Positions 7,437-26,663 of a stretch of 55,985 bases of DNA are shown piece after piece. The stretch is taken from contig JAHQVX010000054.1 of NCBI GenBank assembly GCA_019634125.1, forward strand, positions 1 to 55,985. Reading direction: 5' to 3'. The DNA is from Saprospiraceae bacterium. GTDB lineage: Bacteria > Bacteroidota > Bacteroidia > Chitinophagales > JAHQVX01. Below the pieces are notes generated by a model. That model made no database searches. It was not told where the DNA came from and was given only the letters and a program-made list of their open reading frames with translations. Both the position numbers and the translations under genes were made by a program. Numbering within the stretch: position 1 is the first letter of the stretch; the number at the start of each line of letters is the position of its first letter.

Positions 7437-7540
7437 GATTTTCTAAGCTTTTTTTAAGCTAGTGAATCTTTAGATTGATGCCGCAAAACTAGCGGGAAAG
7501 AGATACTTTTGACAAAACTTTACCATTCGTTTAAGATATT

Positions 7541-8181: not shown

Positions 8182-8184
8182 AGT

Positions 8185-9198
8185 TTACTCAAATCCCTGA
8201 ACACCATTTACGGTGGTGTATTTCAATACTAAATTCTTATCTGGGAAAATCCGTTTAAAAGCAGATTGAACCATTAACGTTGCTTCATGAAAACCACAAA
8301 GAATCAATTTTAGTTTCCCAGGATAGGTGTTACAATCGCCTATCGCGTAAATGCCATCAATATTCGTGCTATAATCGAAGGTGTTGACTTTAACCGCATT
8401 TTTCTCAATATCCAAGCCCCAATCCGCGATTGGTCCGAGCTTAGGAGTGAGTCCAAACAACGGCACCCAGTGGTCGGTTGCGATTTTCTTTTCGCCTAAC
8501 GTCTTATGTTTCACGGTAAGTTCGTTCAGCTGCCCATTTCCGGAAATGCCAATGACTTCTGCCTCGGTGAGCAACGTTAATTTATTACGTTCAGCTAATT
8601 CAATCACTCGTTGTGCCGAATCGGGATGCCCTCTAAAGCCATTTCTTCGATGAACAAGGGTGACTTCTTCAGCTACTTGCTCTTCTGTTAAGTAAATGGC
8701 CCAATCCAAAGCAGAATCGCCTCCGCCAGAGATAACTACTTTTTTCCCTCTGTAGAATTCAGGATCCTTTATAATGTATTCAATGCCTTTATCTTCAAAG
8801 TCTGTCAAATTCTGGATAGGTGGTTTTCGCGGTTCAAAGCTTCCTAGTCCGCCAGCAATGGCAACAACTGGTGCTTTGTGCACCGTGCCTTTATTGGTCG
8901 TCACTAAAAAATCGCCATCTTCGGCCTTTTCAATAGTTTGAGCACGCTCACCCAGCGTAAAGCCAGGCTTAAACGGCTCTGCTTGAGCCATTAAACGTTC
9001 TACTAAATCGCCAGCTAAAATCTCTGGATAAGCTGGAATATCGTAGATCGGTTTTTTTGGATAAATCTCTGAGCATTGCCCACCAGGCTGTGGAAGTGCA
9101 TCGATTAAATGGCACTTCAATTTTAACAAGCCTGCTTCAAAAACAGTAAAGAGTCCACAAGGGCCAGCTCCAATGATTAAAATATCTGTTTGAATCAT
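8185..9198 (-). CDS. thioredoxin-reductase-like ferredoxin-NADP(+) reductase
   Basis: Two dinucleotide-binding motifs, IIGAGPCGLF and ISGGGDSALDWA. Start moved to MIQTDILIIGAG (9198), because the upstream 32 aa look like a non-coding extension. Confidence 0.8.
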   Translation of the reverse strand: MIQTDILIIGAGPCGLFTVFEAGLLKLKCHLIDALPQPGGQCSEIYPKKPIYDIPAYPEILAGDLVERLMAQAEPFKPGFTLGERAQTIEKAEDGDFLVTTNKGTVHKAPVVAIAGGLGSFEPRKPPIQNLTDFEDKGIEYIIKDPEFYRGKKVVISGGGDSALDWAIYLTEEQVAEEVTLVHRRNGFRGHPDSAQRVIELAERNKLTLLTEAEVIGISGNGQLNELTVKHKTLGEKKIATDHWVPLFGLTPKLGPIADWGLDIEKNAVKVNTFDYSTNIDGIYAIGDCNTYPGKLKLILCGFHEATLMVQSAFKRIFPDKNLVLKYTTVNGVQGFE

Positions 9199-9292
9199 AG
9201 ATCTCAGAAAAATTTGTGCAAAGGTACTTTTAGAAAATCTAAGCGTTAAACTTTCGCTTCTTATTTTCGCACTTATGGGCGTAAACATTGCC

Positions 9293-10393
9293 ATGGTAGA
9301 TTTAAAAACGCAGTATTTGCGTTTAAAAACAGAAATTGATGCTGCAATATCAGCAGTATTGGAAAGTAGTCGGTTTATCGGCGGAAAGGAAGTTACACGG
9401 TTCTCAGAACGGCTTTGTGCTTATTTAAATGTGCAACATTCGATTACATGCGGCAATGGTACGGATGCCCTCCAAATTGCATTAATGGCCTTAGATCTAA
9501 GGCCTGGGGATGAAGTCATTGTTCCTGCCTTTACCTACATTGCGCCAGTAGAAGTTATTGCGCTGCTCGGACTCAAGCCGGTGTTGGTAGATGTGAAGCC
9601 AGATACCTTTAATATTGATCCAGACGTACTCGTAGCGGCCATTAATTCGAAGACTAAAGCGATTATTCCCGTTCACTTATTTGGACAAAGTGCCGACATG
9701 GCTTCTATCATGAATATCGCCAAGAAACACGGACTTAAAGTAGTGGAAGACAATGCGCAATCGATTGGAACTAGGTTTGAGGGAAAGCATACAGGTACGT
9801 TGGGTGATATTGGTTGCATTAGTTTTTTTCCGTCGAAGAACTTAGGGGCTTATGGGGATGGCGGTGCATTAACGACGAATGACAGTGGGCTCGCCGCACG
9901 CTTGAAGAGCATTTGCAGTCATGGGCAATATTCAAGAAAGTATTATCACGATGAAATAGGGGTAAATAGTCGGCTCGATGCGCTTCAAGCGGCGATATTA
10001 AATGTAAAGTTGGGGCATTTGGATGATTTTGTGGCTGCCCGCCGCAGCGTAGCTGCGGCGTACGACAAGGCACTCAACGACGTTGCAGACATTACAATTC
10101 CTTTTCGCACTGCCTCCTCTACCCATGTATTTCATCAATACACACTCAAAATCAAGGCGGGCAAACGCGACGCATTAAAAGCCTATTTGTCCGAACAAGG
10201 CATACCGAGCATGATCTACTACCCCATGCCGATCTATACACAGCGTGCGTACACCAACGAATTCCCCGCTACTATTCACTTACCCGTTACGGAACAACTC
10301 TGCCAAGAAGTGTTATCCTTGCCAATGCACACGGAGATGACCGAAGACCAGATAGAATATATTATTCATCATGTTAAGCAATTCTTTAGCTAA
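9293..10393 (+). CDS. DegT/DnrJ/EryC1/StrS-family PLP-dependent sugar aminotransferase (WbpE/GnnB-like)
   Basis: MVDLKTQYLRLK... N-terminus. The FFPSKNLGAYGDGGA block carries the catalytic Lys. Length about 366 aa. Confidence 0.9.
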   Translation: MVDLKTQYLRLKTEIDAAISAVLESSRFIGGKEVTRFSERLCAYLNVQHSITCGNGTDALQIALMALDLRPGDEVIVPAFTYIAPVEVIALLGLKPVLVDVKPDTFNIDPDVLVAAINSKTKAIIPVHLFGQSADMASIMNIAKKHGLKVVEDNAQSIGTRFEGKHTGTLGDIGCISFFPSKNLGAYGDGGALTTNDSGLAARLKSICSHGQYSRKYYHDEIGVNSRLDALQAAILNVKLGHLDDFVAARRSVAAAYDKALNDVADITIPFRTASSTHVFHQYTLKIKAGKRDALKAYLSEQGIPSMIYYPMPIYTQRAYTNEFPATIHLPVTEQLCQEVLSLPMHTEMTEDQIEYIIHHVKQFFS

Positions 10394-11217
10394 TGCGAAA
10401 GACCTTTGCACTCATTGGTTCGAACGGATATATCGCTTCCAGGCACGTTGAGGCCATTGCGGCTACAGGCGGGCAATTGGTGGCTACATTAGACCCGAAG
10501 CCCCTTTCAAAAGAAAACAGTACTCATTTCACCGATGAAGCGGCGTTTTTTAAACATGTAGAAGAACAAGCCGTGGATTACGTAAGTATTTGCAGCCCCA
10601 GTTTTTTGCATGCGAAGCATGCAAAAAAAGCCATGGAAGCGGGATGTAACGTGATCTGTGAAAAGCCCCTCGCGCTTCGTTTGGATGACTTTCAAGCGCT
10701 GAAAGCGCTTGAAAAAAAACACCAAAAAAACTGCTTCGCCGTATTCCAATTCCGTCAAAGCACGACCATTCAATCCATCAAAAACACGATTAATCCTCAC
10801 GAACCTCAGAAAGTAGAACTCTTTTTTCAAGGCTACAGGCCTACCCAGTACTGGGAAAGCTGGAAAGGAAATGTAGAGCAAAGCGGGGGAATCTTAACCA
10901 ATATTGGTATTCACTACTTTGACATTGTGGCTTTTTGGCTGGGATATGACTGGACATACTTGAATTATTCAGAAGCCATGAAAAAATCGACGGGAACAGC
11001 AAAAATCGACGGAATACACGAGTTTAGTTGGTTGATCCAATTAGAAGACGAGGAACAACCCACTTCGAGATATTTCAAACTCAACAATGAACTCATCCCC
11101 CTCCACAATGATCAGCAGCTGTACAATAAGACCTATTTAGAATTCACTTCTACAGAAAAGAGCCTTCTCCACCAAGCACATCTCACCCATTCTATTCTCC
11201 CTGCTTTTAATACCTAA
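10393..11217 (+). CDS. Gfo/Idh/MocA-family sugar oxidoreductase (WbpB/GnnA-like)
   Basis: N-terminal Rossmann FALIGSNGYIASRH and the conserved EKPL motif (VICEKPLAL). Start overlaps the aminotransferase stop. Confidence 0.7.
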   Translation: MRKTFALIGSNGYIASRHVEAIAATGGQLVATLDPKPLSKENSTHFTDEAAFFKHVEEQAVDYVSICSPSFLHAKHAKKAMEAGCNVICEKPLALRLDDFQALKALEKKHQKNCFAVFQFRQSTTIQSIKNTINPHEPQKVELFFQGYRPTQYWESWKGNVEQSGGILTNIGIHYFDIVAFWLGYDWTYLNYSEAMKKSTGTAKIDGIHEFSWLIQLEDEEQPTSRYFKLNNELIPLHNDQQLYNKTYLEFTSTEKSLLHQAHLTHSILPAFNT

Positions 11218-11254
11218 AAGTTTAACGCATATTTGTAGTCTATTGGGCTTTAAT

Positions 11255-11881
11255 ATGAAAAAAGTACTTCAGAATATTGTCATTTCTATCTTTTCAAATT
11301 TCTATACACTATTCGGTAGCTATATAAAGAAAGGTAAAGGTGCAGCAAGTTTAAAAAAGGTAAAAAATAAGCTTTCGTTTATTGGTTCTGGAGTTCGTTT
11401 TAATGGCACAGTAACTATTACTGCACCTGGAAGCACTGCTATTGGAAATAACGTACACATTGGCGATAACGCTTTCCTTAGAACAGAAGGAGGCTTAGAA
11501 ATTGGAGATAACACGCACATCAGTAGAAATATTACTATTTACACACAAAACCATCAATATCAGGGGGCTGTTTTGCCTTTCGACAAGGATTCAATAAAAA
11601 AACCTGTTGTAATTGGCAAAAATGTTTGGATAGGCATGAATGTATCCATCCTACCTGGAGTAACCATAGGTGATGGGGCTATCATAGGATTAGGCACAGT
11701 AGTAATTAAAGATATTGAACCACTATCCATTGTTGGGCATCCGACTCCAAACTTCATCAAAAGTAGAGATGGAGATCATTACAACCGCTTAGAAAACGAC
11801 AAAGCTTATGGCGCTGTAGGCGGGAAAAAACTTTCCAAAGAAGCTATTGCAAACTACAAAGCATGGCCAAATGGCAAATAA
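11255..11881 (+). CDS. hexapeptide-repeat (LbH) acyl/acetyltransferase
   Basis: Repeated [LIV]-G-x-x-x-x hexads (IGNNVHIGDNAF, IGDNTHISRNI, IGKNVWIGMNVSILPGVTIGDGAIIG). ATG at 11255 preferred over TTG at 11243. Confidence 0.8.
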   Translation: MKKVLQNIVISIFSNFYTLFGSYIKKGKGAASLKKVKNKLSFIGSGVRFNGTVTITAPGSTAIGNNVHIGDNAFLRTEGGLEIGDNTHISRNITIYTQNHQYQGAVLPFDKDSIKKPVVIGKNVWIGMNVSILPGVTIGDGAIIGLGTVVIKDIEPLSIVGHPTPNFIKSRDGDHYNRLENDKAYGAVGGKKLSKEAIANYKAWPNGK

Positions 11882-13319
11882 CCTGAAACAAAGAGCTGTA
11901 AATAGTACTGTTTGGTCATTTGCAAATCAACTGCTTGCCAAAGGCATTTCTTTCTTTGTACAAATTTTATTAGCCAGATTATTACTCCCTGAAGACTTTG
12001 GACTTATCGCAATGGTTGTTGTATTCATCAATATACTGAATGCATTATCCGACTCAGGAATGGCTTCATCATTGCTTAGAACCAAGAATGCGAACGAAGA
12101 AGATTACAACACCGTATTTATATCAAACTTTGGATTTTCTATAGTCTTTTACGCCATACTTTTTTTGCTTGCGCCATTGATCGCCAACTTCTACAACGAA
12201 GCCCAACTAACAACTATTACTCGGATTTATGGAACTATTATTGTCATCCAGTCATTCTCAACGATTCAGCGAGCAAAACTGACAAGACAACTAGAGTTTA
12301 AGAAGCTTACGTTTGTTGAACTTCCCGCCGTATTAATTAGTGGCCTTGTAGGAGTTGTTGCCGCTTTACAAGGGCTAGGTGTTTGGGCTTTAGTTTTTAT
12401 GCACGTTTCGCTTCGAATAATGGATGCCTTTTTATTTTGGTTTACAACTAGATGGAAACCAAAACTAAAGATCCACAAGGAAAAGTTTATGCAACATTTT
12501 GATTATGGGATTAAAATGTCTTTAACTACAGTAACCAACCAAGTTTTCGCAGAATCTTACAACCTGTTCATCGGTAAATTTTATAGTGCAGGTACTTTGG
12601 GTCTGTACAACCGTTCATATACACTACAAAACACACCCACGCTTGTAGTTGGTCGATCTTTGAATCGAGTCACATTTCCAATGTTTTCCGACATCCAAGA
12701 CGATAACCCAAGACTCAAAAAATATTACAAACAAATTGCCGCCTTTGTGATGCTGATTATGGGGCCTTTTACATTAATTTCATTTTTTACAGCAGAACAA
12801 TTAATCCCAGCATTACTTGGCGCCCAATGGAAAGAGGCCATCCCTATTTTCAAAGTGGTTATTTTTTTAAGCCTAATGCTCCCGATCATCAGTTTTAATT
12901 TGAACATAATAAAGGCAAAAGGTCTAAGTGGATTAGTATTAAAAATCAACACCGGTTTAAAAATTTTGGCCATTTTGCTAATCATACTAGTTCTAAAAAA
13001 AGGAATAATGTGGCTAGTAGCTGTACAAGTTTTCCTGAAGTTTTTAGAGCTTGCCACCAACTCTCACTTTGCTGGAAAACTGATCAACTATAGCCTTTTC
13101 AATCAGCTCTTCGATTTAATAAAAACACTTTCTTTCAGTATTTTTGCAGGGACTTTCTCATATTTTTTAATCACCAAAGTTCACTTAGACAGCTCTTTTA
13201 CTTTCATTGCTGTTTATGTCAGCCTTTTCATGATTGTTTACATTTCATTACTAGAAGTTTCGAATCAACCCGATTATGTTGCATTGAAACATTTAGTATG
13301 GAATAAAATCAAAAAGTAA
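11871..13319 (+). CDS. wzx: Wzx-type polysaccharide flippase (MOP superfamily)
   Basis: About 480 aa, with 12 or more predicted TM helices. Typical N-terminus ...NSTVWSFANQLLAKGISFFVQILLARLL. Start at MANNLKQ overlaps the upstream stop. Confidence 0.85.
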   Translation: MANNLKQRAVNSTVWSFANQLLAKGISFFVQILLARLLLPEDFGLIAMVVVFINILNALSDSGMASSLLRTKNANEEDYNTVFISNFGFSIVFYAILFLLAPLIANFYNEAQLTTITRIYGTIIVIQSFSTIQRAKLTRQLEFKKLTFVELPAVLISGLVGVVAALQGLGVWALVFMHVSLRIMDAFLFWFTTRWKPKLKIHKEKFMQHFDYGIKMSLTTVTNQVFAESYNLFIGKFYSAGTLGLYNRSYTLQNTPTLVVGRSLNRVTFPMFSDIQDDNPRLKKYYKQIAAFVMLIMGPFTLISFFTAEQLIPALLGAQWKEAIPIFKVVIFLSLMLPIISFNLNIIKAKGLSGLVLKINTGLKILAILLIILVLKKGIMWLVAVQVFLKFLELATNSHFAGKLINYSLFNQLFDLIKTLSFSIFAGTFSYFLITKVHLDSSFTFIAVYVSLFMIVYISLLEVSNQPDYVALKHLVWNKIKK

Positions 13320-14322: not shown

Positions 14323-15723
14323 ATGGAATTAGTTTCCAAAAATATTGACCAATTAATCACTTCTGGTGGCGACGAACGACTTGATCTTTTAGACAATGGA
14401 TTGAATAAATATTATTTGAACCCAAATGATTTCCAAGGGCTCATCAACAGAGGTTCATGTACGTGTAATACGTTAAATTCTTTTTCGAAGCCTATTGTAA
14501 ATCAAGTCTATTCAGATGTAGAGGGTGGGAAGGCATATAACGAATTGTTGGCCGAACACCGTAAACGCCTTAAAGATTTACTTAATTATGAGGGTCAGGA
14601 TAAATTCGATATCATATTCGCCCCTTCAGGAAGTGACTTGGTGTATTTACCGATTCTGTTCGCAAACATGCTGCACCCCAACAAGAAAATTATGAATTTC
14701 TTGACCTGCCCGGAAGAACTCGGGTCTGGAAGCATCACAGCCGCAGAAGGGAATTATTACATGGCTAAAAACCAATTCGACGAAGCATTACCAAAGACTG
14801 GATCATTAAAAACAGGACTGAATATTGAAGTGATTTTCTTCAATGCAAGGAGTTCATCCGGTCACATCCTTGACCATAAGGAAACCCTGAAACGAGAAAT
14901 CGCCCTACATCCGAATGAAGCCAAAATTGGAAGTTTAGTAATCGGCAGTAAATCGGGAATAGCCGACAACTTAACGGTTATTGACGAAGTAGAAGAAGAT
15001 GTACTTTGGACCATTGACTTATGTCAATTTAGAAATAGTAAAAAGTTGGTCAACGAGCTATTAGACAAAGGATGTAGTCTGATGATTACTGGCTCTAAAT
15101 TCTATCAAGCCCCTCCTTTTTGTGGTGCTATGCTTGTTCCAAAACCACTGGTAAAAAGACTTCAGAACTGTAAACTAGAAAGTACTGCTGCTTACTTAAA
15201 GACCATGTTTTCGGCGAATGACTTTCCGGATTCACTCATGAATGTTAAACAATCCCTTCGAAGCTTCAATAATTTAGGACTTCAACTTCGGTGGGAAGCA
15301 GCAATTAGTGAAATGGAAGCACTTAATGAGCTCCCTAATGAGGTCGTTAACGGCACTATTACTGAGTGGAATAATGTGGTAATGGGAGAACTTAGCAAAT
15401 ACCCGTATTTTAAGTTGATGCCGAATCAGAAAATTAGCAACCAGACCATTATTTCCTTCCGCGTGAAGAAAGATGGGGCATTTTTGGATCACCAGGCTTT
15501 ACGCCAGCTTTACAAGGAGATTCTAGTGAACAATCATACGATTTCGGATCAATTCGATCGGCTATGTATTGGACAACCCGTAGAATACATGAACAAGTCG
15601 TTTATTCGAATGGCATTAGGCTCTTTCAATTTAAGGAGGCTACTGGCCAAACCTGCTGAAAGCAGGTTTGATAACGACAAAAGGATTATCGAGCTCATTG
15701 CTCAAAAAATAGAAGCGTTGTAA
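14323..15723 (+). CDS. hypothetical protein, probable fold-type-I (class-V aminotransferase-like) PLP enzyme
   Basis: 466 aa. FAPSGSDLVYL..., then IDLCQF...SLMITGSKFYQAPPFCGAMLVP. This mirrors the class-V pattern vD..Q....sGHKw.gP.G.G.L with a candidate PLP Lys. Assignment is by pattern only. Confidence 0.45.
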   Translation: MELVSKNIDQLITSGGDERLDLLDNGLNKYYLNPNDFQGLINRGSCTCNTLNSFSKPIVNQVYSDVEGGKAYNELLAEHRKRLKDLLNYEGQDKFDIIFAPSGSDLVYLPILFANMLHPNKKIMNFLTCPEELGSGSITAAEGNYYMAKNQFDEALPKTGSLKTGLNIEVIFFNARSSSGHILDHKETLKREIALHPNEAKIGSLVIGSKSGIADNLTVIDEVEEDVLWTIDLCQFRNSKKLVNELLDKGCSLMITGSKFYQAPPFCGAMLVPKPLVKRLQNCKLESTAAYLKTMFSANDFPDSLMNVKQSLRSFNNLGLQLRWEAAISEMEALNELPNEVVNGTITEWNNVVMGELSKYPYFKLMPNQKISNQTIISFRVKKDGAFLDHQALRQLYKEILVNNHTISDQFDRLCIGQPVEYMNKSFIRMALGSFNLRRLLAKPAESRFDNDKRIIELIAQKIEAL

Positions 15724-15724
15724 T

Positions 15725-16972
15725 ATGCTGTCTTTAATTCAAGAGGAAGCGTTTTCGTCGACTTACAAAAGGGCGTTGACCAATGATTTAATTTCCTCCG
15801 AAGACACCTCTATCATCTTCTTTGATACCGACAAACTCGAAGAGAAACTTCAATACTTAAAAACCCTCTTCCCGGAATCTACCCACGCCATTGCCATTAA
15901 AAGCAATCCCCTAATTGTCAATCTAAAGACCATTTTAGAGTATGGCTTTAGTCTGGAGGCTGCATCAATGGAAGAGATCGAATTGGCTAAAGCGGCTGGG
16001 GCTGAAAACCATCAAATTGTATTCGATTCCCCAGTAAAAACAACTACAGAAATCCAGTTGCTTGCCGAACAATTAAAAGGTATTCACGTAAACGCCAATT
16101 GTATTGAGGAATTAGATCGCCTCAAAATACTACAAGACCACGTGGTTGGCCTGAGGATCAACCCATTGGTTGATCCAGGATCGCCCGACCATTTGAGCGT
16201 ATCTCGATCTTCTTCAAAATTTGGTGTTCCAATTTCATTAGAAAATGAAATCATTCAAGCAGCACTCGATTACGATAATGTGCAATGCCTTCATGTACAT
16301 ATCGGCTCGCAAATCGATGACCTCAATTCATTGCCAATCGCCTTGGAACGAATTTTAGACTTAGCTCGCATTATTAACCAACGTGCAGGCTTTAAAAAAA
16401 TTCACACCATTGATCTGGGTGGAGGATTTCCTGTCAATTACCAGCTCGATTCTGTACTAGGCATGGAGCAACTACGCGAAAATATTCTCCGTCGTACCCC
16501 GCAACTTTTTTCGGAATACAAGACCATCACCGAATTTGGACGATTCCCGAATGCGCACACATCCTGGATGGTGTCGGAAATCGAATATGAACTATCCTAC
16601 ACAACGCCTAAAACCATCATGGTTCATTTAGGTGCAGATAGCTTTGTTCGGGAGATTTATTCCTTCCAAGAAAAGCACCGGAAATTTATCCTTTCTGGTA
16701 AGGATTACAGCATTAAAAAAGGGCAAGAAACCGCCTATCAAATTGGAGGTCCACTCTGTTTTGGCGGAGATTTTTTAAGTCGAAATTGCCTTCTACCTAA
16801 AGTAGAAAAAGCAGACAAATTAGTGATTGCAGATGTTGGTGCGAACACCTTTTCACTCTGGTCGCGCCACTGCAGTAGAGCTTTTCCAAAAGTGATTGCC
16901 TACAGTAAAGACAAGATGGAAATCATAAAATCAAGAGAAAGTTATACCGACATCATCAATTTTTGGAGCTAA
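15725..16972 (+). CDS. fold-type-III PLP-dependent decarboxylase (Orn/DAP/Arg decarboxylase family)
   Basis: PLP-Lys motif AIAIKSNP, plus HVHIGSQ, DLGGGFPV and GGPLCFGGDF, which are the family's signature blocks. Confidence 0.8.
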   Translation: MLSLIQEEAFSSTYKRALTNDLISSEDTSIIFFDTDKLEEKLQYLKTLFPESTHAIAIKSNPLIVNLKTILEYGFSLEAASMEEIELAKAAGAENHQIVFDSPVKTTTEIQLLAEQLKGIHVNANCIEELDRLKILQDHVVGLRINPLVDPGSPDHLSVSRSSSKFGVPISLENEIIQAALDYDNVQCLHVHIGSQIDDLNSLPIALERILDLARIINQRAGFKKIHTIDLGGGFPVNYQLDSVLGMEQLRENILRRTPQLFSEYKTITEFGRFPNAHTSWMVSEIEYELSYTTPKTIMVHLGADSFVREIYSFQEKHRKFILSGKDYSIKKGQETAYQIGGPLCFGGDFLSRNCLLPKVEKADKLVIADVGANTFSLWSRHCSRAFPKVIAYSKDKMEIIKSRESYTDIINFWS

Positions 16973-18663
16973 TGGCTTATATCTTTTATCAATACGCTCG
17001 ACAAGCAAGTTCTGAGTCCGAACAACAAAAGGTCATCCAAAAGTTGGATGAAGCGATTCATGCCGACACCTCCATTTATAGGTCGGACAATCACCAAATT
17101 TTATACTACTCCCAAGCGTCTGAGTTTATTGCTGATCACAATTTCTCCTTAGTTAGCGGAGCATTTACTGGAATTCGTGAGAATTGGCACAGTCCAGAAG
17201 CAGAGAAACCCGAGAATTTTACTTTCTTTTTAAGAAATACAGCCGACGAACTCACCGCAAACACCGACCTCTTAGCCTCACGAACCATTTGGTATTACAA
17301 AGACGAGGAGCAATTCATTATATCTTCTTCTCAACTTTTAATTATTCAAGCACTTGGCTCGTTTGAGTTAAACCCTCAAGCTGTCTCTTGGATGGTAGCC
17401 ACGGGCACTTCCGGACCGGATACGAGTTGGGACAAACGCATTCATGCTTTGGGCGCTAATGGCGAGATCACGTTAAATAAGAAAGACTGGAGCTTTTCCA
17501 AAACCAATAAAGAACTGGCTTTTTCGGGTGAAAAACAATCGGATGAAGCGCTTTCGAATTTGCTCACATCCCGTACTGAAGCCTTATTTCATAAGGCTTC
17601 TTTCTCCGATAAATCATTCATAACACTTTCTGGAGGTGTAGATAGCCGTGTTATTGCCTCTATGTGCAAATCCAACAATAAACGCATTGCCAATGAAGTG
17701 TACACCTGGGGAATCGAATCCAAAGCATCCGAAAAGAAAGGAGATATCTATGTCGCCAAACTAGTAGCCGAAAAACTTGGCTATAATCATGTATTCTTAG
17801 CCAATGACTCCAAGTATTGCAAGCTAGATTTCCCAGCATTTATCAGCAATTATGCACTCAGAAGCGAGGCACGAATTGATCATTTCATCGGCTATTTGGA
17901 TGGATTTAATATGTGGGAGGATTTTACGAAAAAGTACGATACCAACATCCGGGGAGATGAAGTTTTCGGGGGCCGACAACACATCTTTGATGAAACGCAC
18001 GTTCGCATCTTACAAAGCTTACACGATCTATCCATCTACGACAACATACCCAACCTAGACCAACTCGGCCTCGAAAACATCCAATTCAAGAAGCAACTAG
18101 AAAGAAGACATGGAGAAACATTAGAAGATTGGAGAGATAGGCTATTCAGCTACCAAAATATTACTACAGTCCAGGCCAGCTTGAATGGAATCAAGCAACA
18201 CTATGTGGAAGTGGTCAATCCGTTTTTAAATCAGGAAATTATCAAACTTACCCGAGCCTTCTCGGTAGACCAACGCTCCCAAAAAAGACTATTCTTTAAA
18301 GCCTTTTCTGATCATTTACTAGGAATACCTACTGCTCAATTAAGCGTGAACGGACGCAAAAAACGCGTATTAGAATTGGCGCATGCCCAAACCTTCATGT
18401 TGGATACATTGTCCAGCGAAAACACAAAAAACGTATTTGGCGACGCCCTTTGTATTCTATTGTCTGAAAAGACCAGCTTCGCTCAACCTTCAGAACAAGT
18501 CAGCCTAAAAAAACGATTAAGAAAACTTATCCCGAATAGTCTACTCAAAGTCTATAGGTCGGAAATTAAGAGCGAACGCATTGATTATTTTTCGCTTGTA
18601 TTTCGAATAAATATGGTCATGGTTTTCTTAGATAAAATTGAAGCCATGATTAATTCAAAGTAA
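16972..18663 (+). CDS. asparagine-synthetase-like adenylating amidoligase lacking the N-terminal Cys nucleophile
   Basis: PP-loop SGGVDSRV. ATG at 16972 makes a TAATG overlap with the decarboxylase stop. The N-terminus MAYIFYQ... has no MCG glutaminase start. Confidence 0.7.
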   Translation: MAYIFYQYARQASSESEQQKVIQKLDEAIHADTSIYRSDNHQILYYSQASEFIADHNFSLVSGAFTGIRENWHSPEAEKPENFTFFLRNTADELTANTDLLASRTIWYYKDEEQFIISSSQLLIIQALGSFELNPQAVSWMVATGTSGPDTSWDKRIHALGANGEITLNKKDWSFSKTNKELAFSGEKQSDEALSNLLTSRTEALFHKASFSDKSFITLSGGVDSRVIASMCKSNNKRIANEVYTWGIESKASEKKGDIYVAKLVAEKLGYNHVFLANDSKYCKLDFPAFISNYALRSEARIDHFIGYLDGFNMWEDFTKKYDTNIRGDEVFGGRQHIFDETHVRILQSLHDLSIYDNIPNLDQLGLENIQFKKQLERRHGETLEDWRDRLFSYQNITTVQASLNGIKQHYVEVVNPFLNQEIIKLTRAFSVDQRSQKRLFFKAFSDHLLGIPTAQLSVNGRKKRVLELAHAQTFMLDTLSSENTKNVFGDALCILLSEKTSFAQPSEQVSLKKRLRKLIPNSLLKVYRSEIKSERIDYFSLVFRINMVMVFLDKIEAMINSK

Positions 18664-18714
18664 AATGGTTGGCTTTTTTACATCCTACTTATATTCGCAG
18701 AACAAAACCTAATT

Positions 18715-19194
18715 ATGATATCCAGCAAAGCAACTATTGGAAGAAATGTAGAAATCGGGAACTATGTAGTGATCGAAGATGGTGTAGTCATTGGAGATGG
18801 CACTGTGATCAAAAACTTTGTTGAACTGCGTCAAAACACCATCGTTGGAGAGAATTGCTACATCGACTCCCGGGTGTCTACTTCCGGAAATTGTAAAATA
18901 GGAAATAATGTAACCCTGCGTTACGACACCATTATTGCTCGAGGCTGTGAAATCGGCGACAACACATATGTTTGTCCCCGAGTAATGACCAATAACTTAG
19001 ACACAGGCAAAGAACAGATTGGAGGCGCCAAAGTGGGTAAAAACTGCTTTATTGGTACCAATACCGTACTTCAACATGGAATTACCATTGGTGAGAACTC
19101 CGTTACTGGAAGTATGTCTTTTGTAACAAAAGATATCCCTGCCAACGAAATTTGGATTGGAACTCCAGCCAAGTTGTACAAAAAAATAGAGTAA
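18715..19194 (+). CDS. hexapeptide-repeat (LbH) acetyltransferase
   Basis: 159 aa, almost entirely hexapeptide repeats (IGRNVEIGNYVVIEDGVVIGDGTVI...). Confidence 0.8.
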   Translation: MISSKATIGRNVEIGNYVVIEDGVVIGDGTVIKNFVELRQNTIVGENCYIDSRVSTSGNCKIGNNVTLRYDTIIARGCEIGDNTYVCPRVMTNNLDTGKEQIGGAKVGKNCFIGTNTVLQHGITIGENSVTGSMSFVTKDIPANEIWIGTPAKLYKKIE

Positions 19195-20163
19195 TTACTC
19201 TGCGTCGTACTCGAACGCATTTAAGCACCAATATTCCGAATTAATCATTACTTCTTGATCAGAATTTGGAACTAGAATAGTGAAGGGTTTAGTCCCTTTC
19301 AAAGGCCCCTTATTGGTTTTATTAACTAAAAATCCATAACTCAACAGTGCTTGTGCATAGTACGAATCATCCTGTGCTTGAGAAACGATGCCCTTTAATT
19401 TTTCCGCCTTTACGATGCGTTTTAAATAAGCCAATAAGGTTTTACCTGCCTGTTTGGTATTAAAGTAAAAATCGAAGACTAGAATTTTATCCTTCTCGGA
19501 AAGGTAGGTAACAAATCCATGATACTGACCTGTTTCATCCTTGTAAGCGATGACTTTGTATGTTTTTTCTGGATTACTAATGCGCCATCTATAGATTTCT
19601 GCACTTTTCTTAGCATGAATCCGAGCAGAACCATTCGACTGTTGCAATAAGTCTTCAATGGGATTTAACTCCTCCATTTCAACCACTTGTTCAAGCCCTT
19701 TTTTACTCGGAGCAAACATGAGCTGTCGGGGGAAAAAGAAGTTTCGAAACTGCGCGGTTTTTTTCCATCCAAAAAAGAGCTTAGACTTTAACGTGATAGG
19801 CCCAGTATATGAAATACCAATCGTCTTGGCTTCATCTTGCAAAAAGCGGTCACCTACTACGTGAAGCTTCTTAAACAAGCCTTTCCTAGTATGGTTTGAA
19901 TGGGTCATGCCGTTACAGGCTTGGTAAAATACTTTCTCTTCGCCGTCAACTACAAAAATTTGTGGCATTAAGCCGTAAAACGCTGCGGGCTCATTCTGCT
20001 CCGAAAAAGCCATTAAGCCCACCACTTTTCCTGAAGGATTGCTAGAAAACTTCCATTTAAAATAGTCAAGGCTTACTGCTTTATTGAAAGCATCTTCGGT
20101 AAGCGGAATAAGTAAGTCTAATTCTTCCTCTGTGATTTTTCTTACGGTGTAGTTATCGGCCAT
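19195..20163 (-). CDS. GNAT-like acyltransferase (two-domain)
   Basis: 322 aa. Candidate acyl-CoA motif-A region THSNHTRKGLFKKL. It is the only minus-strand gene in this part of the locus. Weak assignment. Confidence 0.5.
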   Translation of the reverse strand: MADNYTVRKITEEELDLLIPLTEDAFNKAVSLDYFKWKFSSNPSGKVVGLMAFSEQNEPAAFYGLMPQIFVVDGEEKVFYQACNGMTHSNHTRKGLFKKLHVVGDRFLQDEAKTIGISYTGPITLKSKLFFGWKKTAQFRNFFFPRQLMFAPSKKGLEQVVEMEELNPIEDLLQQSNGSARIHAKKSAEIYRWRISNPEKTYKVIAYKDETGQYHGFVTYLSEKDKILVFDFYFNTKQAGKTLLAYLKRIVKAEKLKGIVSQAQDDSYYAQALLSYGFLVNKTNKGPLKGTKPFTILVPNSDQEVMINSEYWCLNAFEYDAE

Positions 20164-22322: not shown

Positions 22323-24794
22323 ATGAGACGGATGAGTTGGATATATAGTGTGATAATGGTGTTGGCATTGAGTCCAGCACAGCAAAGCTGTGCTGCTAAA
22401 AAAAACCTGACCAACAATGAACAGGTGGTAGTATCTTCAATCACCCAAGAACAAAATTTGAAAAACCCTCCCGCTTACAACGACTTTGTTCAACTTACCT
22501 CAAGGTATTCGAATGCACCAAGCCTCGAACTGGTTGCAATCAACAAAGCAAATTTACCCTCAGCTATTCGCCAAGAAATTAAAGCAGATCGTTTTTATAT
22601 CGATGCCAATCATCAGAGTATCAAAATCATAGCGGCCTCTTCCAAAGACTTTACCAACGGAATTTATTATGCCTTAGACCGGTTGGGCATTCAATTCCTT
22701 GGCCTATCTGATAACTTCATTGAATTCCCTGAAGAACTGAATGTTTTCGAGCAAAAACAGTTAATTCATCAAAATTTTAAAGTCCGTTATTTCGGCACAG
22801 GAGGAAATGGTCGATACAAAGTCCAAAAAACCCTACACCAACAGTTTAAAGCCCGAAATCAGTTAGATGATTATGACGTAGTCGGACACACGTTTTCCAA
22901 TCTCTATAAAGAAAACAAAGCGACCATCGATGCGCTTCACAAAAAAGGGAAAATCATTTTTCATGACTACCCCAAAAAGACCAAGAACCCCAACTTCGAT
23001 GAACCAGCTACCGTAGAACTCATCAAAAAATGGATCGAGAAAAAATACCTGGAAAAGCCAGATCAAAAAATCATAGGATTGGCAGCAGCTGATGGAATTG
23101 GGAACGATCAAGGCACCAATTCTTCGAATCCACTTATAGTTAATACCATGTCAAAATACCTGTGGATTGGTAATGAAGTGGCCAAGTATTTAAACAATAA
23201 ATACCCCGAATTTGAAGCCAATAATTTCATTGGAGTCAATGCATATGGGGCAGGAACTGGAGTCGCTAAAGCTCCGGATTGGCCATCTAGCTATAAAACA
23301 GCATCCAACGTATGGGTTCAACTGGCACCCTATGCTTTTCAAAAAGACTATGAAGGCGATCTAAAACAGTCGGCCGATGAAAAAATGATTGCTGACTGGA
23401 CAACTAAGTTCCCCCAGTTCAGCTATTCAATGAGAGACTACTGGAACATTACCCAGTGGACCAACGGAATACCACGAACGAACTTTTTTGAAGTCACGGA
23501 TCGAGTAGAATTATGGAGGTCTACTGGCATGAAATCAGCCAACATAGAATCTACAAATTTCTCTGCGCTGACCAATCCACATTTTTGGGTGGCTGGCAAA
23601 TTAGCCACCAACACCTCACTGAATAAAGAAGTGTTATACAAGAATTACTTCGATACCACTTTCAAAGCATCGGCCGATGACATGGAAGCATATTACCAAC
23701 TACTCTCCAACTGGAAAGGACCTATCTCACTTTGTGAAGCAGAAGAATTATTAGAGTCAGCCTATGAAAACGCTCAGCATCCAATAGTCGAAAATCGAAT
23801 TATCGAGATCATGGGCTACATGCATTATGTACGACAGTTTTATGCGCTCACCGCTGCAAAAACTACTGACAAAGCAGGAAGTCCAGCTTACAAAAAATGG
23901 GAAAACGAAGCCTTAAAACACGAACGATGGGCGAAAAAACTCAATGAGCTGGGCGTTATCCAAACCTGGGCAGTGTACAATTATAACTATGGAAAACACA
24001 AGCCTTGGGGCCTAAAGAAATCGCCAGAAACGTTTGACGCCCACTTGTCTACCAGTGATTTTCAAAGCTTAAAATCTACTATACTAACTCGATTTAAAAC
24101 TGGAAAAAAAGCTTGTGGTAACCAAGAGTTGAAATTCGTGAAACAGGCTTACACCAATCAACGTTTTTCGGTCAAAAATCCACAACCATTTTGCATTAGC
24201 CCATTCCGCCAGAATGAATTGATCACCTTCACCCCACTGCAAACGACACAACTAAACATTACTATTGAAAGTCCGAAACCTGATGCGGTTTTCGAATTGA
24301 AAGGTTCTGATGGCACCTATGTGGACTACAGTGACAAAAGCAATGATTTTGTTATTTCTGACATTGTTCGCCCAGGCGTGGATTATACATTACGATTAGG
24401 AAGTCGAAAAAACGCGAGTAAATTCTGTTTTAACAACACCGACATCTTATTTACGTACAAGGAATTCGCACACACCTCACAAGCCAGCGGCTACAAAAGA
24501 AATATTCTATATTTCTATGTGCCCGAACATGTAGATGAAATCGTTTTCAGTGGTTTGGAACAAGCCGAAAAAAACTATTTCACCGATGTATTTACACCTG
24601 ACGGGACCTTACTCAGTGCACCACTAAAAAAACTCGCCTTTAAAGAAGGCAACACACCCGTGTACTCTGTTCCAACCCATACGAAAGACTTTGATGGAAG
24701 GGGAAAAGTATGGAAAATTAGAAGTTGGACGTGGAAAATGAAAGTGCATAATTTTAACCCTATTATTAGTCGACAAGAATTTGAAGCCAATTAA
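22323..24794 (+). CDS. large exported protein/lipoprotein of unknown function (possibly glycoside-hydrolase-like)
   Basis: 823 aa. Signal sequence ...VLALSPAQQSC with a candidate lipidation Cys. N-terminal SIKIIAASSKDFTNGIYYALDRLGIQFLG resembles the N-domains of GH20/DUF4838-type proteins. No firm catalytic motif recognised. Confidence 0.35.
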   Translation: MRRMSWIYSVIMVLALSPAQQSCAAKKNLTNNEQVVVSSITQEQNLKNPPAYNDFVQLTSRYSNAPSLELVAINKANLPSAIRQEIKADRFYIDANHQSIKIIAASSKDFTNGIYYALDRLGIQFLGLSDNFIEFPEELNVFEQKQLIHQNFKVRYFGTGGNGRYKVQKTLHQQFKARNQLDDYDVVGHTFSNLYKENKATIDALHKKGKIIFHDYPKKTKNPNFDEPATVELIKKWIEKKYLEKPDQKIIGLAAADGIGNDQGTNSSNPLIVNTMSKYLWIGNEVAKYLNNKYPEFEANNFIGVNAYGAGTGVAKAPDWPSSYKTASNVWVQLAPYAFQKDYEGDLKQSADEKMIADWTTKFPQFSYSMRDYWNITQWTNGIPRTNFFEVTDRVELWRSTGMKSANIESTNFSALTNPHFWVAGKLATNTSLNKEVLYKNYFDTTFKASADDMEAYYQLLSNWKGPISLCEAEELLESAYENAQHPIVENRIIEIMGYMHYVRQFYALTAAKTTDKAGSPAYKKWENEALKHERWAKKLNELGVIQTWAVYNYNYGKHKPWGLKKSPETFDAHLSTSDFQSLKSTILTRFKTGKKACGNQELKFVKQAYTNQRFSVKNPQPFCISPFRQNELITFTPLQTTQLNITIESPKPDAVFELKGSDGTYVDYSDKSNDFVISDIVRPGVDYTLRLGSRKNASKFCFNNTDILFTYKEFAHTSQASGYKRNILYFYVPEHVDEIVFSGLEQAEKNYFTDVFTPDGTLLSAPLKKLAFKEGNTPVYSVPTHTKDFDGRGKVWKIRSWTWKMKVHNFNPIISRQEFEAN

Positions 24795-25324
24795 TGAATA
24801 CCATTCCTACTAAAATTGAAGGGCTCTTTATCATCGAGCCAAGAATTTTCGAAGATGAAAGAGGCTATTTTTTTGAAAGCTTTAACCAACAAAAGTTTGA
24901 AGCAGCCATAGGCCATTCCATTCATTTTGTTCAAGACAATGAATCGAAATCCACCAAAGGTGTTCTGAGAGGCTTACACTTTCAAAAAGGAGAACACGCT
25001 CAAGCTAAGTTAGTTCGTGTTACTGAAGGTGAAGTGTATGATGTAGCAGTAGATTTAAGACCGAACTCCCCGACCTATGGACAATGGGAAGGTGTATTAT
25101 TAACTGCCGAAAACAAACGCCAATTTTTTGTGCCTAGAGGCTTTGCACATGGCTTCGTTGTGCTGTCTGAAACTGCAGTATTCAATTATAAATGTGATAA
25201 TTTCTATCACAAAGAGGCTGAAAGCGGTATCAAATACGACGATCCTACACTGAATATCGACTGGAAATTACCAAAAGAAGCACTTATTCTATCCCAGAAG
25301 GATTTGGAGCACGGTTACTTATAA
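24794..25324 (+). CDS. rfbC: dTDP-4-dehydrorhamnose 3,5-epimerase
   Basis: 176 aa with a canonical RmlC sequence (DERGYFFESF...RGLHFQ...QAKLVRV..GEVYDVAVDLR...FVPRGFAHGF). Confidence 0.95.
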   Translation: MNTIPTKIEGLFIIEPRIFEDERGYFFESFNQQKFEAAIGHSIHFVQDNESKSTKGVLRGLHFQKGEHAQAKLVRVTEGEVYDVAVDLRPNSPTYGQWEGVLLTAENKRQFFVPRGFAHGFVVLSETAVFNYKCDNFYHKEAESGIKYDDPTLNIDWKLPKEALILSQKDLEHGYL

Positions 25325-26663
25325 AAAAGCCTTTGGTAGTGAACAACCAAATGATTAGGCAATAAAAGAAAGGCAGCAATGGTGTCTTGTACCGAACCAA
25401 GGCACCAAAATTTAGTGAGAATCCAGTCATAGCTGCAAACAACAAAACAAAGACTAGGCTAAACAGTAGAATAGGTTCTGCCAAAATCGCTCGAATAATT
25501 CGAACAATGCCTACTTTAAAAATTAGGAAACCTACCAGTATTAAGTTAAGAAACGACTCGAATGCAGTGATCAGAACAAATGCTTCGCGTGCTTCCCAAA
25601 TGTAAGGTCTAAAGAAAGTAGTAAATATGGAATAAGGCATTAATCGGACTGCACTTAACGGATTCATCAAGTCTAAAGTACCAAGACTATAAGAAGAACC
25701 ACCTGCCCCTGTTGTACTTTCGATATAGAGACCTGTTGTAATGATCTTTGCCAAAAGGATCTCGGGGGTGAACTTAGGTAAATATCGAGCAATCAAGAAG
25801 TAGGCAATTCCCGCAAAGGCAAGAAATGCTAAGTAAATTGTTGGTTTCAGGAAATATTTTCCCATCCCATACTTCAACTTGTAAGTCATTTTACCTAAGA
25901 TGAATATAGGAACCGAAGCATAAAACAGTATTACAGCATATTCCTTCACGCTAAAGGCGTAAAAAGAGAATACAATTAAGACGACGAACCAAACGAAGTT
26001 CTTAGTTCCGAAGTGAAATAGTTTCATAAAAGCATAAAACATAAAGCCCAGGGCACCGAGCAGGATCGTGTCTTTCATCACGCCAGACGTCCAGAATACC
26101 AGCGTTGGAAAAAAGGCACAGAACACATAAAATAAATCTGTATTTGGTCGGGCCTTTGTAAAGGCTTTGGCGATCATCCAAGTTCCTTGAAATGCAAATG
26201 CACCAAAACAAAAAGACATGGCTAAATACGACTTAGCGAAGATGGCTCCGAATAAAGCTGCTGTCTTAATCACGATAACTGAATTCGGCGAACCAAAGAA
26301 GCCATGCAAATCAGTCACGCGTTCAGTACTAGCACTGTGATTTACATACTTTGTAGTGAAAATTTCTATGACTTCATTGGGATGTTGCCAGAAATGATCA
26401 ATGAGTATTCTTGCCCCAGCATAATAATTATACGTATCGCCGTGCCCGTAGTAGTACTGATATACTAGGGCAAATAAGAAGGACATAGCTAATTTAAAGG
26501 ACAACCCAGCCAAGTATATCTTACTATGATGCTTATCTTTGATCGAAAATTTACAATACAAATATCCAATCGTTAGGATGACAGCAAGGGCAACTGGCCC
26601 CATGACCAAATCGATTGGGTATAGTATTTTTTCGTCATTATAGAGATAATATATAGGATCCAT
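25284..26663 (-). CDS. multi-pass membrane protein, putative Wzy/EpsG-like polysaccharide polymerase
   Basis: 459 aa with more than 10 hydrophobic helices and no soluble domain. The locus has a Wzx but no other polymerase candidate. Function is inferred from context. Confidence 0.4.
   Translation of the reverse strand: MDPIYYLYNDEKILYPIDLVMGPVALAVILTIGYLYCKFSIKDKHHSKIYLAGLSFKLAMSFLFALVYQYYYGHGDTYNYYAGARILIDHFWQHPNEVIEIFTTKYVNHSASTERVTDLHGFFGSPNSVIVIKTAALFGAIFAKSYLAMSFCFGAFAFQGTWMIAKAFTKARPNTDLFYVFCAFFPTLVFWTSGVMKDTILLGALGFMFYAFMKLFHFGTKNFVWFVVLIVFSFYAFSVKEYAVILFYASVPIFILGKMTYKLKYGMGKYFLKPTIYLAFLAFAGIAYFLIARYLPKFTPEILLAKIITTGLYIESTTGAGGSSYSLGTLDLMNPLSAVRLMPYSIFTTFFRPYIWEAREAFVLITAFESFLNLILVGFLIFKVGIVRIIRAILAEPILLFSLVFVLLFAAMTGFSLNFGALVRYKTPLLPFFYCLIIWLFTTKGFFISNRAPNPSGIE

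Follow-up and report, generated by a model that had tools for sequence, protein, structure and literature searches.

A PLP enzyme of class-V-like fold paired with a lysA-derived decarboxylase in a Saprospiraceae glycan locus: a candidate module for the amide-linked decoration of glycans

In Campylobacter jejuni HS:2, the decoration of glucuronic acid involves a transaminase (Cj1437), a serine-phosphate decarboxylase (Cj1436), an ATP-dependent amide ligase (Cj1438C) and a phosphatase (Cj1435), as reported in PMC12409886. A cassette of comparable logic is described here on contig JAHQVX010000054.1 of a Saprospiraceae bacterium, whose 55,985 nucleotides (nt) were analyzed as a whole and constitute what is called below the window. 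Like the HS:2 system, this cassette would combine pyridoxal phosphate (PLP) enzymes encoded in the locus, which yield a small amine, with an ATP-dependent ligase that joins this amine to a sugar carboxylate as an amide. The cassette occupies positions 14323-19194 of the plus strand, within a Wzx-dependent glycan cluster, and its genes encode proteins of 159 to 563 amino acids (aa).

14323-15723, plus strand: gene 1, PLP466, 466 aa, no Pfam or NCBIfam match, class-V-like by fold
15725-16972, plus strand: gene 2, fold-III decarboxylase, 415 aa, with the PF02784 and PF00278 domains
16972-18663, plus strand: gene 3, AsnB-fold PP-loop ligase lacking the N-terminal Cys, 563 aa from its ATG, a TTG start at 16963 being open too
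18715-19194, plus strand: gene 4, left-handed beta-helix (LbH, hexapeptide) acyltransferase, 159 aa, Hexapep 103 bits

Genes 1 and 2 are separated by a gap of 1 nt, the TAA stop of gene 2 overlaps the ATG of gene 3 in the TAATG read in the sequence (GCTAATGGC), and genes 3 and 4 lie 51 nt apart. The four consecutive genes, the gap and the overlap reported in the original prediction were confirmed in this way.

The likeness with Campylobacter concerns the logic of the pathway and not its enzymes. Set apart by description, PLP466 belongs to an unannotated family, the decarboxylase is of fold-type III and not of the aminotransferase fold, and the fold of the ligase is that of AsnB. Furthermore, no phosphatase is present in the window, where the context favors a sulfonate over a phospho-amine, nor is there a UDP-sugar 6-dehydrogenase to provide a uronate acceptor. 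A second point of reference is given by the AsnB homologues of the WbpS type, which are associated with uronamides of O-antigens and can be likened by description to gene 3, with which they have the glycan-locus setting in common. The presumed nucleophile of gene 3 differs from that of known members of the AsnB family, since it would be an exogenous amine made by the neighboring genes. By these comparisons, the cassette appears to be a member of neither the Campylobacter glucuronamide system nor the AsnB-type uronamide synthases, though functionally alike. The scheme, in which the locus encodes the synthesis of an amine as well as its ligation as an amide, is of a known kind, whereas the enzyme family that serves it here is new. 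This family and its partner probably constitute an amine or amino-acid module which, together with an amide ligase, decorates a glycan, and the genomic context points to a sulfonate, either taurine or cysteate, as the amine.

A conserved enzyme pair and its fusions

The conserved unit consists of the first two genes, not of the four-gene cassette. About 170 loci were examined, including the best 80 of each of two sets in which 216 and 265 loci were found. A decarboxylase gene lies directly 3' of the PLP466 gene in 71 of the 80 named-genome loci, and four of the nine exceptions are at a contig edge. These 80 loci belong mostly to Saprospiraceae, Crocinitomicaceae, Cryomorphaceae and Schleiferiaceae, to which Planctomycetes and Calditrichota have to be added. 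The pair is also present on four of four homolog-bearing contigs, either within glycan loci (Portibacter L001; L003) or in housekeeping surroundings (L002, L005). Indeed, it is encountered outside glycan loci in many genomes, where it adjoins rpsF-rpsR-rplI (L002) or follows rpoBC (L005). Among cultivable carriers, Portibacter marinus and P. lacus represent the glycan-locus arrangement and Lishizhenia the stand-alone one.

The two activities are also found fused in a single polypeptide. Fusions of PLP466 with the fold-III decarboxylase were detected in P0239, P0244, P0245, P0254, P0257 and P0261, and fusions with a group-II decarboxylase in P0226 and P0238. Further fusions of the PLP466 domain involve CysH, a SerB-like HAD domain and AsnB. 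An organism is given for few of these fused or distant relatives. The source of the P0257 fusion is listed as the chrysophyte Epipyxis and that of the AsnB fusion as the prasinophyte Pyramimonas; the contigs behind most other fusions (Logan, ENA or JGI) carry no attribution. Homologs of PLP466 made of a single domain, or extended at the N-terminus, are present in Capsaspora (CAOG_02364), Cymbomonas and the red alga Galdieria. Because the decarboxylases of the bacterial gene pair and of the fused eukaryotic protein have a private signature in common, both can be considered as one system. Decarboxylation itself appears to be the required partner activity, since PLP466 is also fused to the unrelated group-II decarboxylase.

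Some neighbors of the pair are worth recording. A gene of about 350 aa coding for a TseH-like NlpC/P60 protein with DUF6695 overlaps the start of PLP466 in L005 (6977-8026), L029 (1911-2987) and about 39 more Flavobacteriales loci; it is probably co-transcribed with PLP466, and its product may be a papain-fold amidase or acyltransferase acting on the product of the module. In L091 (3141-7523), a group-II decarboxylase-PLP466 fusion of 976 aa adjoins an ATPgrasp_ST ligase and an amidohydrolase, on a contig that also encodes an F420H2-dependent quinone reductase. The decarboxylase of L078 is split into two open reading frames (ORFs; 11389-11637 and 11634-12656), probably by a frameshift in the assembly of this metagenome-assembled genome.

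PLP466 itself gave no Pfam or NCBIfam match at E<=0.01. It matched no PDB sequence as a single sequence, and a profile built on 30 homologs gave no PDB match either at E<=10. A word-indexed search retrieved at least 1050 homologs, about 465 aa in length, of which the named ones are all annotated as 'hypothetical' and none has a Pfam domain, and an exhaustive profile search produced 1820 representative clusters at 50% identity. No record identical to the PLP466 of the window was retrieved from public assemblies. The closest homologs are found in Saprospiraceae and other Bacteroidota. The search of the literature found no paper describing this family or the enzyme pair, and the family is new insofar as neither Pfam nor NCBIfam holds a model for it.

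The fold of PLP466 was approached with an AlphaFold model calculated on 30 homologs (pLDDT 89.8, pTM 0.91), which gave 745 Foldseek matches in the PDB at E<=0.001. The best of them are NifS-like proteins, SerC, the 2-aminoethylphosphonate (AEP) transaminase and an EgtE-type C-S lyase, with TM-scores of 0.5-0.57 and 10-14% identity, and the highest target-normalized TM-score (0.70) is that of the SerC phosphoserine aminotransferase 3ffr. On the basis of this model, PLP466 is a fold-type-I PLP enzyme, nearest to class V by fold only. The 'class-V-like' label of the original prediction is therefore valid at the level of the fold and not at the level of the sequence, and the remote homology and structure searches suggested at that time were respectively null and informative.

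The alignment reveals the invariant motifs PSGSDL, D232-x-C-Q235-x-R, T-G-S-K259-F, RW, GQPVxY and FxRxA. D232-x-x-Q235 and S258-K259, separated by a spacing of 27, are invariant in the close and distant clades alike, and D232, Q235 and K259 are kept even in relatives only 23-29% identical to the PLP466 of the window. By analogy, K259 (TGSKF) is likely the Schiff-base lysine and D232 (DxCQxR) the aspartate facing the pyridine nitrogen, with a spacing that is presumably like that of the Asp...Lys of the class-V enzymes IscS, SerC and AGT. PLP466 resembles the class-V enzymes (NifS/IscS, SepCysS and EgtE-type proteins, SerC, AEP transaminase) by its fold, by Arg-rich invariant positions and, by analogy of motifs, presumably by the D-x-x-Q...S-K arrangement. 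It differs from them by the absence of any sequence match at the profile level and by the family-specific motifs RGSCTC, CPEELGSG, GSKSGI and GQPVxY.

The product of gene 2 matches Orn_Arg_deC_N (PF02784, 123.3 bits) and Orn_DAP_Arg_deC (PF00278, 30.4 bits), both above cutoff. The blocks AIKSN (with the PLP lysine), HVHIGSQ, GGGF, EFGR and CxxGD are present, and K59, H190/H192, G232-G234 and C345 are conserved across 74 decarboxylase sequences. The fold and the catalytic core are those of LysA, the diaminopimelate (DAP) decarboxylase, and of its paralogues BtrK, DokD, FslC and the exosortase-associated TIGR03099. The motifs in charge of substrate binding are different. The window decarboxylase reads CFGGD and GAN where three solved DAP decarboxylases, once aligned, read CESGD, CETGD or CESSD and GAY. 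The Phe following the catalytic Cys, a Glu in these three enzymes, is found in 73 of the 74 members of the subfamily, as is the Asn of GxN. The 74 sequences, among them the fused domains of assigned eukaryotic origin, share a conserved or near-invariant private signature made of GPLCFxGD, G(A/S)N, WSRHCSR, R309 and Y312. R309 and Y312 correspond to the R...Y retained from the 'RPxxY' element of DAP decarboxylases, and the invariant SRHCSR comes in addition. The statement that all signature blocks of ornithine/DAP decarboxylases are present is consequently exact for the general blocks of the family and not for the CE(S/T)GD and GAY specific to LysA.

The score against the LysA equivalog TIGR01048 leads to the same distinction (199.6 bits for a cutoff of 297.9). 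It is scarcely credible that gene 2 is a plain LysA and that the pair belongs to lysine biosynthesis, even if lysA is the top NCBIfam model, a PDB sequence search ranks DAP decarboxylases first (114 bits to 2yxx) and some pairs lie in housekeeping surroundings. Besides its score below the cutoff and the replacement of CE(S/T)GD/GAY by CFxGD/GxN in nearly all 74 members, the decarboxylase is paired with PLP466 in glycan loci and fused to it in eukaryotes, this obligatory pairing or fusion being foreign to LysA. In addition, lineages of the Capsaspora type would not be expected to make lysine via DAP. Judging from its sequence, gene 2 is best described as a member of a distinct fold-III subfamily derived from lysA.

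In the structures of ornithine and DAP decarboxylases, the acidic residue following the catalytic Cys contacts the distal ammonium group of the substrate. Because a Phe replaces this Glu, R309 and Y312 are kept and SRHCSR is added, the pocket would suit an anionic and not a cationic distal group. Cysteate is the proposed substrate, its decarboxylation yielding taurine.

Amide-forming partners

The product of gene 3 gave an Asn_synthase match of 27 bits, limited to the PP-loop (LSGGVDS at 219-225), and only 38.8 bits against asn_synth_AEB, whose cutoff is 267.1. The protein starts with MAYIF, or with MELMAYIF from the TTG codon, so that neither start provides an N-terminal Cys, and none of the 22 aligned members of its family has a Cys after Met1. 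The earlier observation of a conserved SGGVDS without a Cys nucleophile is thereby upheld, including against the possibility of an intact glutaminase domain from another start. The model of this protein (pLDDT 86.9) has as top Foldseek matches the hydroxyamidotransferase TsnB9 (TM 0.63), beta-lactam synthetase, carbapenam synthetase and AsnB. Considered together, the matches to TsnB9, beta-LS, CarA, AsnB and ASNS range from 1e-10 to 3e-14 in E-value and from 0.5 to 0.64 in TM-score, for 10-13% identity to the solved members. The closest structures belong to enzymes of the family whose nucleophile is not ammonia released from glutamine. Gene 3 has in common with beta-lactam synthetase, carbapenam synthetase and TsnB9 the two-domain AsnB fold, the SGGxDS motif and the lack of an N-terminal Cys. 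From this model, it is proposed to encode an AsnB-fold amide synthetase that would adenylate the carboxylate of a sugar or glycan and capture the amine made upstream.

The structural neighborhood of gene 3 raises the question of whether the glycan locus happens to house a pathway for a small molecule resembling tabtoxin or a beta-lactam, which would comprise a TabA-like lysA, a TabB/DapD-like LbH protein, an AsnB-like protein resembling beta-lactam synthetase and a PLP enzyme. These gene types parallel, as we take it, those of the tabtoxin cluster, and beta-lactam and carbapenam synthetases are indeed among the relatives of the ligase. This explanation is nevertheless very improbable: the four-gene set is not conserved and the AsnB-like subfamily of the window is absent from the other loci, the cassette is embedded among Wzx, sulfotransferase and glycosyltransferase genes, and the module is paired elsewhere with glycan-type ligases.

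The subfamily of gene 3 is rare, with 50 matches at 26-38% identity. One of its members, in L009 (8001-12523), adjoins an arginine decarboxylase gene (speA) and a spermidine synthase gene, a neighborhood that hints at polyamine use by some members of the family. Broader probes uncovered other AsnB-family genes on the same strand directly after the decarboxylase (L057, L088) or nearby on the opposite strand (L027, L042). The protein of L088 reaches 177 bits on Asn_synthase, and those of L042 and L027, which start with MSGIGGI and MSAFLTW respectively, are both devoid of the Cys nucleophile. In the Campylobacterota-type loci L092-L095, PP-loop proteins of 596-609 aa (LSAGIDS, SGGLDS) are encoded directly after the PLP gene. 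They are weakly related to the window ligase (hhalign probability 67%, E = 5e-5); an Asn_synthase signal, itself weak, was obtained for L092 only, and the protein of L094 has no Pfam match at all. Pyramimonas and relatives (P0231, P0233, P0253, P0266) have the PLP domain fused to a true glutamine-hydrolyzing AsnB, which scores 509 bits for a cutoff of 499.

Amide-forming enzymes of other folds occupy comparable positions. A TupA-like ATP-grasp gene is part of the operon of the module in L078 and L086 (210-224 bits), so that in Planctomycete loci PLP466 shares its operon with an enzyme comparable to the ATP-dependent amide ligase of Campylobacter. Another ATP-grasp candidate adjoins the PLP gene in 47 of the 80 distant-clade loci, many of which lie 3' of flgK-flgL. 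A FemAB-like GNAT gene directly follows the PLP gene in the decarboxylase-less loci L079, L089 and L090, and FemAB-like genes are found within 5 kb in five genome loci, including L057 and L088. Amide-forming enzymes therefore accompany the pair but are interchangeable, as they comprise three AsnB-like lineages, TupA-like and other ATP-grasp proteins, and FemAB-like proteins. The idea that an amine is first made and then ligated is sustained by the frequency of the pair, by its fusions, by these recurrent partners and by the resemblance of the ligase to structures using nucleophiles other than ammonia. It is the extension of this idea to four genes, or to the first three as a co-occurring set, that fails: no gene of the window's AsnB-like subfamily accompanies the pair in the 80 loci, which contradicts the expected co-occurrence for that subfamily.

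Two other features of the Campylobacterota-type loci were noted. A CBS-domain nucleotidyltransferase is encoded in L093 (5136-6964) and L094 (5059-6114), and L093 also encodes a CMP-sugar synthetase (CTP_transf_3); Pfam supports the assignment in L093, whereas in L094 it was read from the sequence. Because such genes typify legionaminic and pseudaminic acid clusters, the carboxylate acceptor could be a nonulosonic acid in these loci. The 455-aa gene located 5' in L092 was considered as a possible decarboxylase and rejected; its product has no Pfam match and looks like a generic surface-carbohydrate biosynthesis protein.

A diamine could also be the product of the pair, in a module similar to the fused 2,4-diaminobutyrate (DABA) aminotransferase/decarboxylase of Vibrio. 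PLP466 would then form 2,4-diaminobutyrate or 2,3-diaminopropionate, and the resulting diamine would be free or ligated. The group-II decarboxylase found in fusions has L-2,4-diaminobutyrate decarboxylase (221 bits) and PanP as its closest matches, many pairs lie among housekeeping genes without a ligase, the AsnB fusion could provide an ammonia nucleophile, and the speA and spermidine synthase neighbors of the L009 homolog go in the same direction. The score of 221 bits has, however, to be compared with a cutoff of 900 for the DABA decarboxylase model, and the window decarboxylase has a Phe where the decarboxylases of diamino substrates carry Glu or Asp, with no obvious binder of a distal ammonium. 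As the associations with sulfite enzymes described below are moreover left without explanation, a diamine module is improbable. The polyamine literature consulted (PMC8503589) deals with decarboxylases of the aspartate aminotransferase (AAT) fold and is irrelevant to the pair.

Identity of the amine

The context that points to a sulfonate comes from loci other than the window. In the Campylobacterota glycan locus L092, the PLP domain of P0267 is fused to a true CysH, a PAPS/APS reductase (166 bits for a cutoff of 154), with the ECGLH and CC...CxxC motifs. In the Planctomycetia locus L078, one operon (6240-12656) combines a sulfotransferase, the TupA-like ATP-grasp, CysH (ECGLH), a short-chain dehydrogenase/reductase (SDR) epimerase, a PLP466 that is 42% identical to that of the window, and the decarboxylase. 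In L094 and L095, a gene combining metallo-beta-lactamase (MBL) and rhodanese domains lies directly 5' of the PLP gene, in the slot held by CysH in the sister locus L092. Fusions of persulfide dioxygenase and rhodanese, which have this MBL-rhodanese architecture, yield sulfite or thiosulfate. Since CysH and MBL-rhodanese share the same slot, one position would be held by two unrelated sulfite-generating enzymes. In Flavobacteriales, an MBL gene with two rhodanese domains lies 5 kb or less from the pair in 22 loci, and a gene of the TauE/SafE 'sulfite exporter' family in 18. The PLP proteins of these loci are 52-98% identical to each other, and their context was therefore counted as one lineage-level association. 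Finally, the SerB-type HAD phosphatase domain fused to PLP466 in the eukaryotic protein P0283 (134 bits) points to serine or phosphoserine as substrate.

When the sulfite enzymes, the SerB fusion and the decarboxylase pocket are combined, the simplest consistent chemistry is a beta-replacement giving cysteate, followed by a decarboxylation to taurine. PLP466, proposed from its sequence context to be a beta-replacement enzyme converting a serine derivative and sulfite into L-cysteate, would form a PLP-aminoacrylate from O-phosphoserine, O-acetylserine or serine and add sulfite to it. The lysA-derived decarboxylase would then remove the alpha-carboxylate of cysteate. The Cys-less AsnB-fold enzyme would adenylate the carboxylate of a sugar or glycan, and the attack of the taurine amine would give an N-tauryl amide and hence a sulfonated glycan. 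In the loci without decarboxylase, cysteate itself would be ligated. In the host of the window, sulfite would come from ordinary cellular sulfate assimilation. Precedents for reactions at the C-beta of phosphoserine-type substrates exist in the class-V fold with SepCysS and SepSecS. Known enzymes of the same proposed chemistry, from phosphoserine and sulfite to cysteate and taurine, are cysteate synthase (EC 2.5.1.76, archaeal and ThrC-like, or CapA in the sulfonolipid pathway of Bacteroidetes) and CSAD. The resemblance is limited to this chemistry: known cysteate synthases are of fold-type II and CSAD is a group-II enzyme of fold-type I, whereas the window combines a class-V-like fold-type-I enzyme with a fold-III enzyme, which are not homologous to them. 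The complete sequence from sulfite to cysteate, taurine and a tauryl amide on the glycan is put forward tentatively, as a reading that stands slightly short of an even chance. That the pair represents an unrecognized CDO-independent taurine route in marine Bacteroidota and some Planctomycetes, fused in protists, with taurine or cysteate being sometimes ligated to glycans, is possible if somewhat doubtful.

Several observations weigh against this chemistry. The CysH-PLP fusion has no second case and counts as one event, and the MBL-rhodanese and TauE genes of Flavobacteriales, mostly on the opposite strand, may reflect inherited synteny; after discounting synteny, about four independent sulfite links are left. 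The window contains no cysH, MBL-rhodanese or TauE gene. Its gene 3 subfamily occurs with the pair in none of the 80 other loci, and four homolog loci (L007-L010) have no pair. A WbpA-type UDP-sugar 6-dehydrogenase, searched for in the 56-kb window with a UDP-glucose dehydrogenase probe and the catalytic-Cys motif, is absent as well. The stereochemistry of the decarboxylase is another difficulty, as DAP decarboxylases act on a D-centre. The genuine AsnB fused in Pyramimonas is left unexplained by a model based on sulfite and cysteate; it could possibly be accounted for by an ammonia nucleophile leading to 2,3-diaminopropionate, or by the ligation of the product to aspartate. A phospho-amine route would account just as well for the HAD fusion of P0283 and for the structural match to SerC. 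The superfamily probably makes more than one product, as judged from the decarboxylase of a distant flagellar clade.

This distant clade was observed in L101-L172 (for instance L138 at 7902-12323, L147 and L166), where the PLP gene lies 3' of flgK-flgL, with an ATP-grasp candidate, a group-II decarboxylase and FlbT nearby. Its named members are Sphingomonadales, and the whole looks like a cassette for the modification of flagellin glycans. The sulfonate model was rejected for this clade, whose group-II decarboxylase resembles aromatic amino-acid decarboxylases and not CSAD. For this reason, the sulfonate reading is confined to the clade of the window and to that of Campylobacterota.

The main rival explanation is a phospho-amine route, in which PLP466, acting like SerC or Cj1437, would provide O-phosphoserine, the decarboxylase would convert it into ethanolamine phosphate, the ligase would amidate a uronate and a phosphatase would trim the product. 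The documented Cj1436/Cj1437/Cj1438C/Cj1435 system is a direct precedent. The top target-normalized TM-score to SerC and the high rank of AEP transaminases agree with this route, as does the fused SerB-type HAD of P0283, and the pocket of the decarboxylase would suit any anion, phosphate included. It is nonetheless unlikely. The fusion and adjacency of CysH and the MBL-rhodanese and TauE genes would have no explanation, and no HAD/SerB-like gene was detected with the probe used, either in the window or in the approximately 170 bacterial loci. Moreover, cells already own SerC, and a dedicated enzyme paired with a decarboxylase would be superfluous for the production of phosphoserine.

A last alternative is a transfer of sulfur, with PLP466 as a desulfurase similar to NifS or SepCysS and the AsnB-like enzyme adenylating a carboxylate that is then thiolated to a thioacid or thioamide. 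Foldseek matches to NifS and IscS, the rhodanese-containing neighbors, the low-scoring resemblance of the PP-loop partners to LarE and TtuA, and the JGI label 'selenocysteine lyase/cysteine desulfurase' carried by some distant members are in line with it. So are the cysteines of PLP466: within the clade of the window, C46, C129 and C234 never vary, and the conservation of C48 and C267 is 90% or higher. They are not conserved superfamily-wide, however, a Ser being found at the position of C46 in P0247 and P0250, and a role of these cysteines in an Fe-S cluster or a persulfide was down-weighted as distant members lack them. Since a desulfurase needs no obligatory, often fused, amino-acid decarboxylase, and ATP-grasp or FemAB-like partners do not thiolate, this alternative is quite improbable.

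If the proposed route to taurine or cysteate is correct, a function would be assigned to 1,800 or more clusters (50% identity) now labeled 'hypothetical', and a new specificity would be added to the lysA-derived decarboxylases. In contrast to sulfate esters, tauryl or cysteinyl amides would carry their sulfonate bonded to carbon; attached by interchangeable ligases, they would form a new class of glycan decoration with a bearing on the resistance of marine polysaccharides to degradation and on recognition by phages and hosts. Taurine and sulfonates of its kind are among the main currencies in the dissolved organic matter of the sea, and the pair would provide a genetic basis for the production of taurine or cysteate by marine bacteria and algae. 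To our knowledge, it is not settled how many algae make taurine without the CDO/CSAD route of animals. The same route could possibly be the origin of a taurine unit known from a bacterial flagellin glycan: type B flagellin of Clostridioides difficile bears a taurinyl-Ala-Gly to which no biosynthetic source was assigned (PMC5207245). Should the amine be of another kind, the conserved and fused PLP enzyme-decarboxylase pair would still be a well-defined and testable subject.

The surrounding glycan locus

The genes on both sides of the cassette are listed below.

9275-11881, plus strand: DegT aminotransferase, GFO/IDH/MocA oxidoreductase and LbH acetyltransferase (Pfam), a WbpE/WbpB/WbpD-like trio
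11847-13319, plus strand: Wzx-type flippase, Polysacc_synt_3, 299 bits
13325-14272, plus strand: sulfotransferase, Sulfotransfer_1, 63 bits, separated by 50 nt from the PLP466 gene
19195-20163, minus strand: protein of 322 aa with two GNAT domains (weak matches), convergent with the LbH gene, the stops abutting at 19194/19195
22323-24794, plus strand: ORF of 823 aa, no Pfam match
25284-26663, minus strand: ORF of 459 aa, no Pfam match
32280-33251: generic NAD-dependent SDR epimerase/dehydratase
33273: WecA-like initiating transferase

The 3' side also encodes a polysaccharide deacetylase, several GT4 glycosyltransferases, RmlC, RmlB and RmlA. From their sequences, the DegT, GFO/IDH/MocA and LbH proteins would make a 2,3-diamino sugar of the 2,3-diacetamido type, and possibly a uronic acid. 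The original prediction named a uronate carboxylate as acceptor and referred to a uronate-epimerase-like gene at 32280. Neither point is supported, as this gene codes for a generic SDR protein with nothing specific to uronates and the window has no UDP-sugar 6-dehydrogenase; a gene for the latter enzyme adjoins the pair in 12 other loci. The sulfotransferase located 5' of PLP466 could be linked to the module or simply serve to sulfate the glycan; sulfotransferase genes flank the module also in L078, L086, L092, L012, L096 and L142.

The product of gene 4 is similar to NeuD, PglB and VioB and reaches 95.6 bits on NeuD_NnaD, below the cutoff. LbH genes are present in 17 of the approximately 170 loci, at variable positions. 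The membership of the LbH gene in the cassette, assumed at first, was consequently abandoned: its product is probably a generic enzyme of the locus for the N- or O-acetylation of sugars, and the gene is not a conserved part of the module. The GNAT-like protein of the minus strand has no detectable similarity to the FemAB-like partner of other loci, and it is only a guess that the 459-aa ORF could be a Wzy-type polymerase. A scan of the window for promoters and terminators produced sites no more frequent than in shuffled sequence and was uninformative on the operon structure. Sequences nearly identical to the window were found only in DNA metagenomes, which originate from a marine plant, seagrass and the plastisphere.

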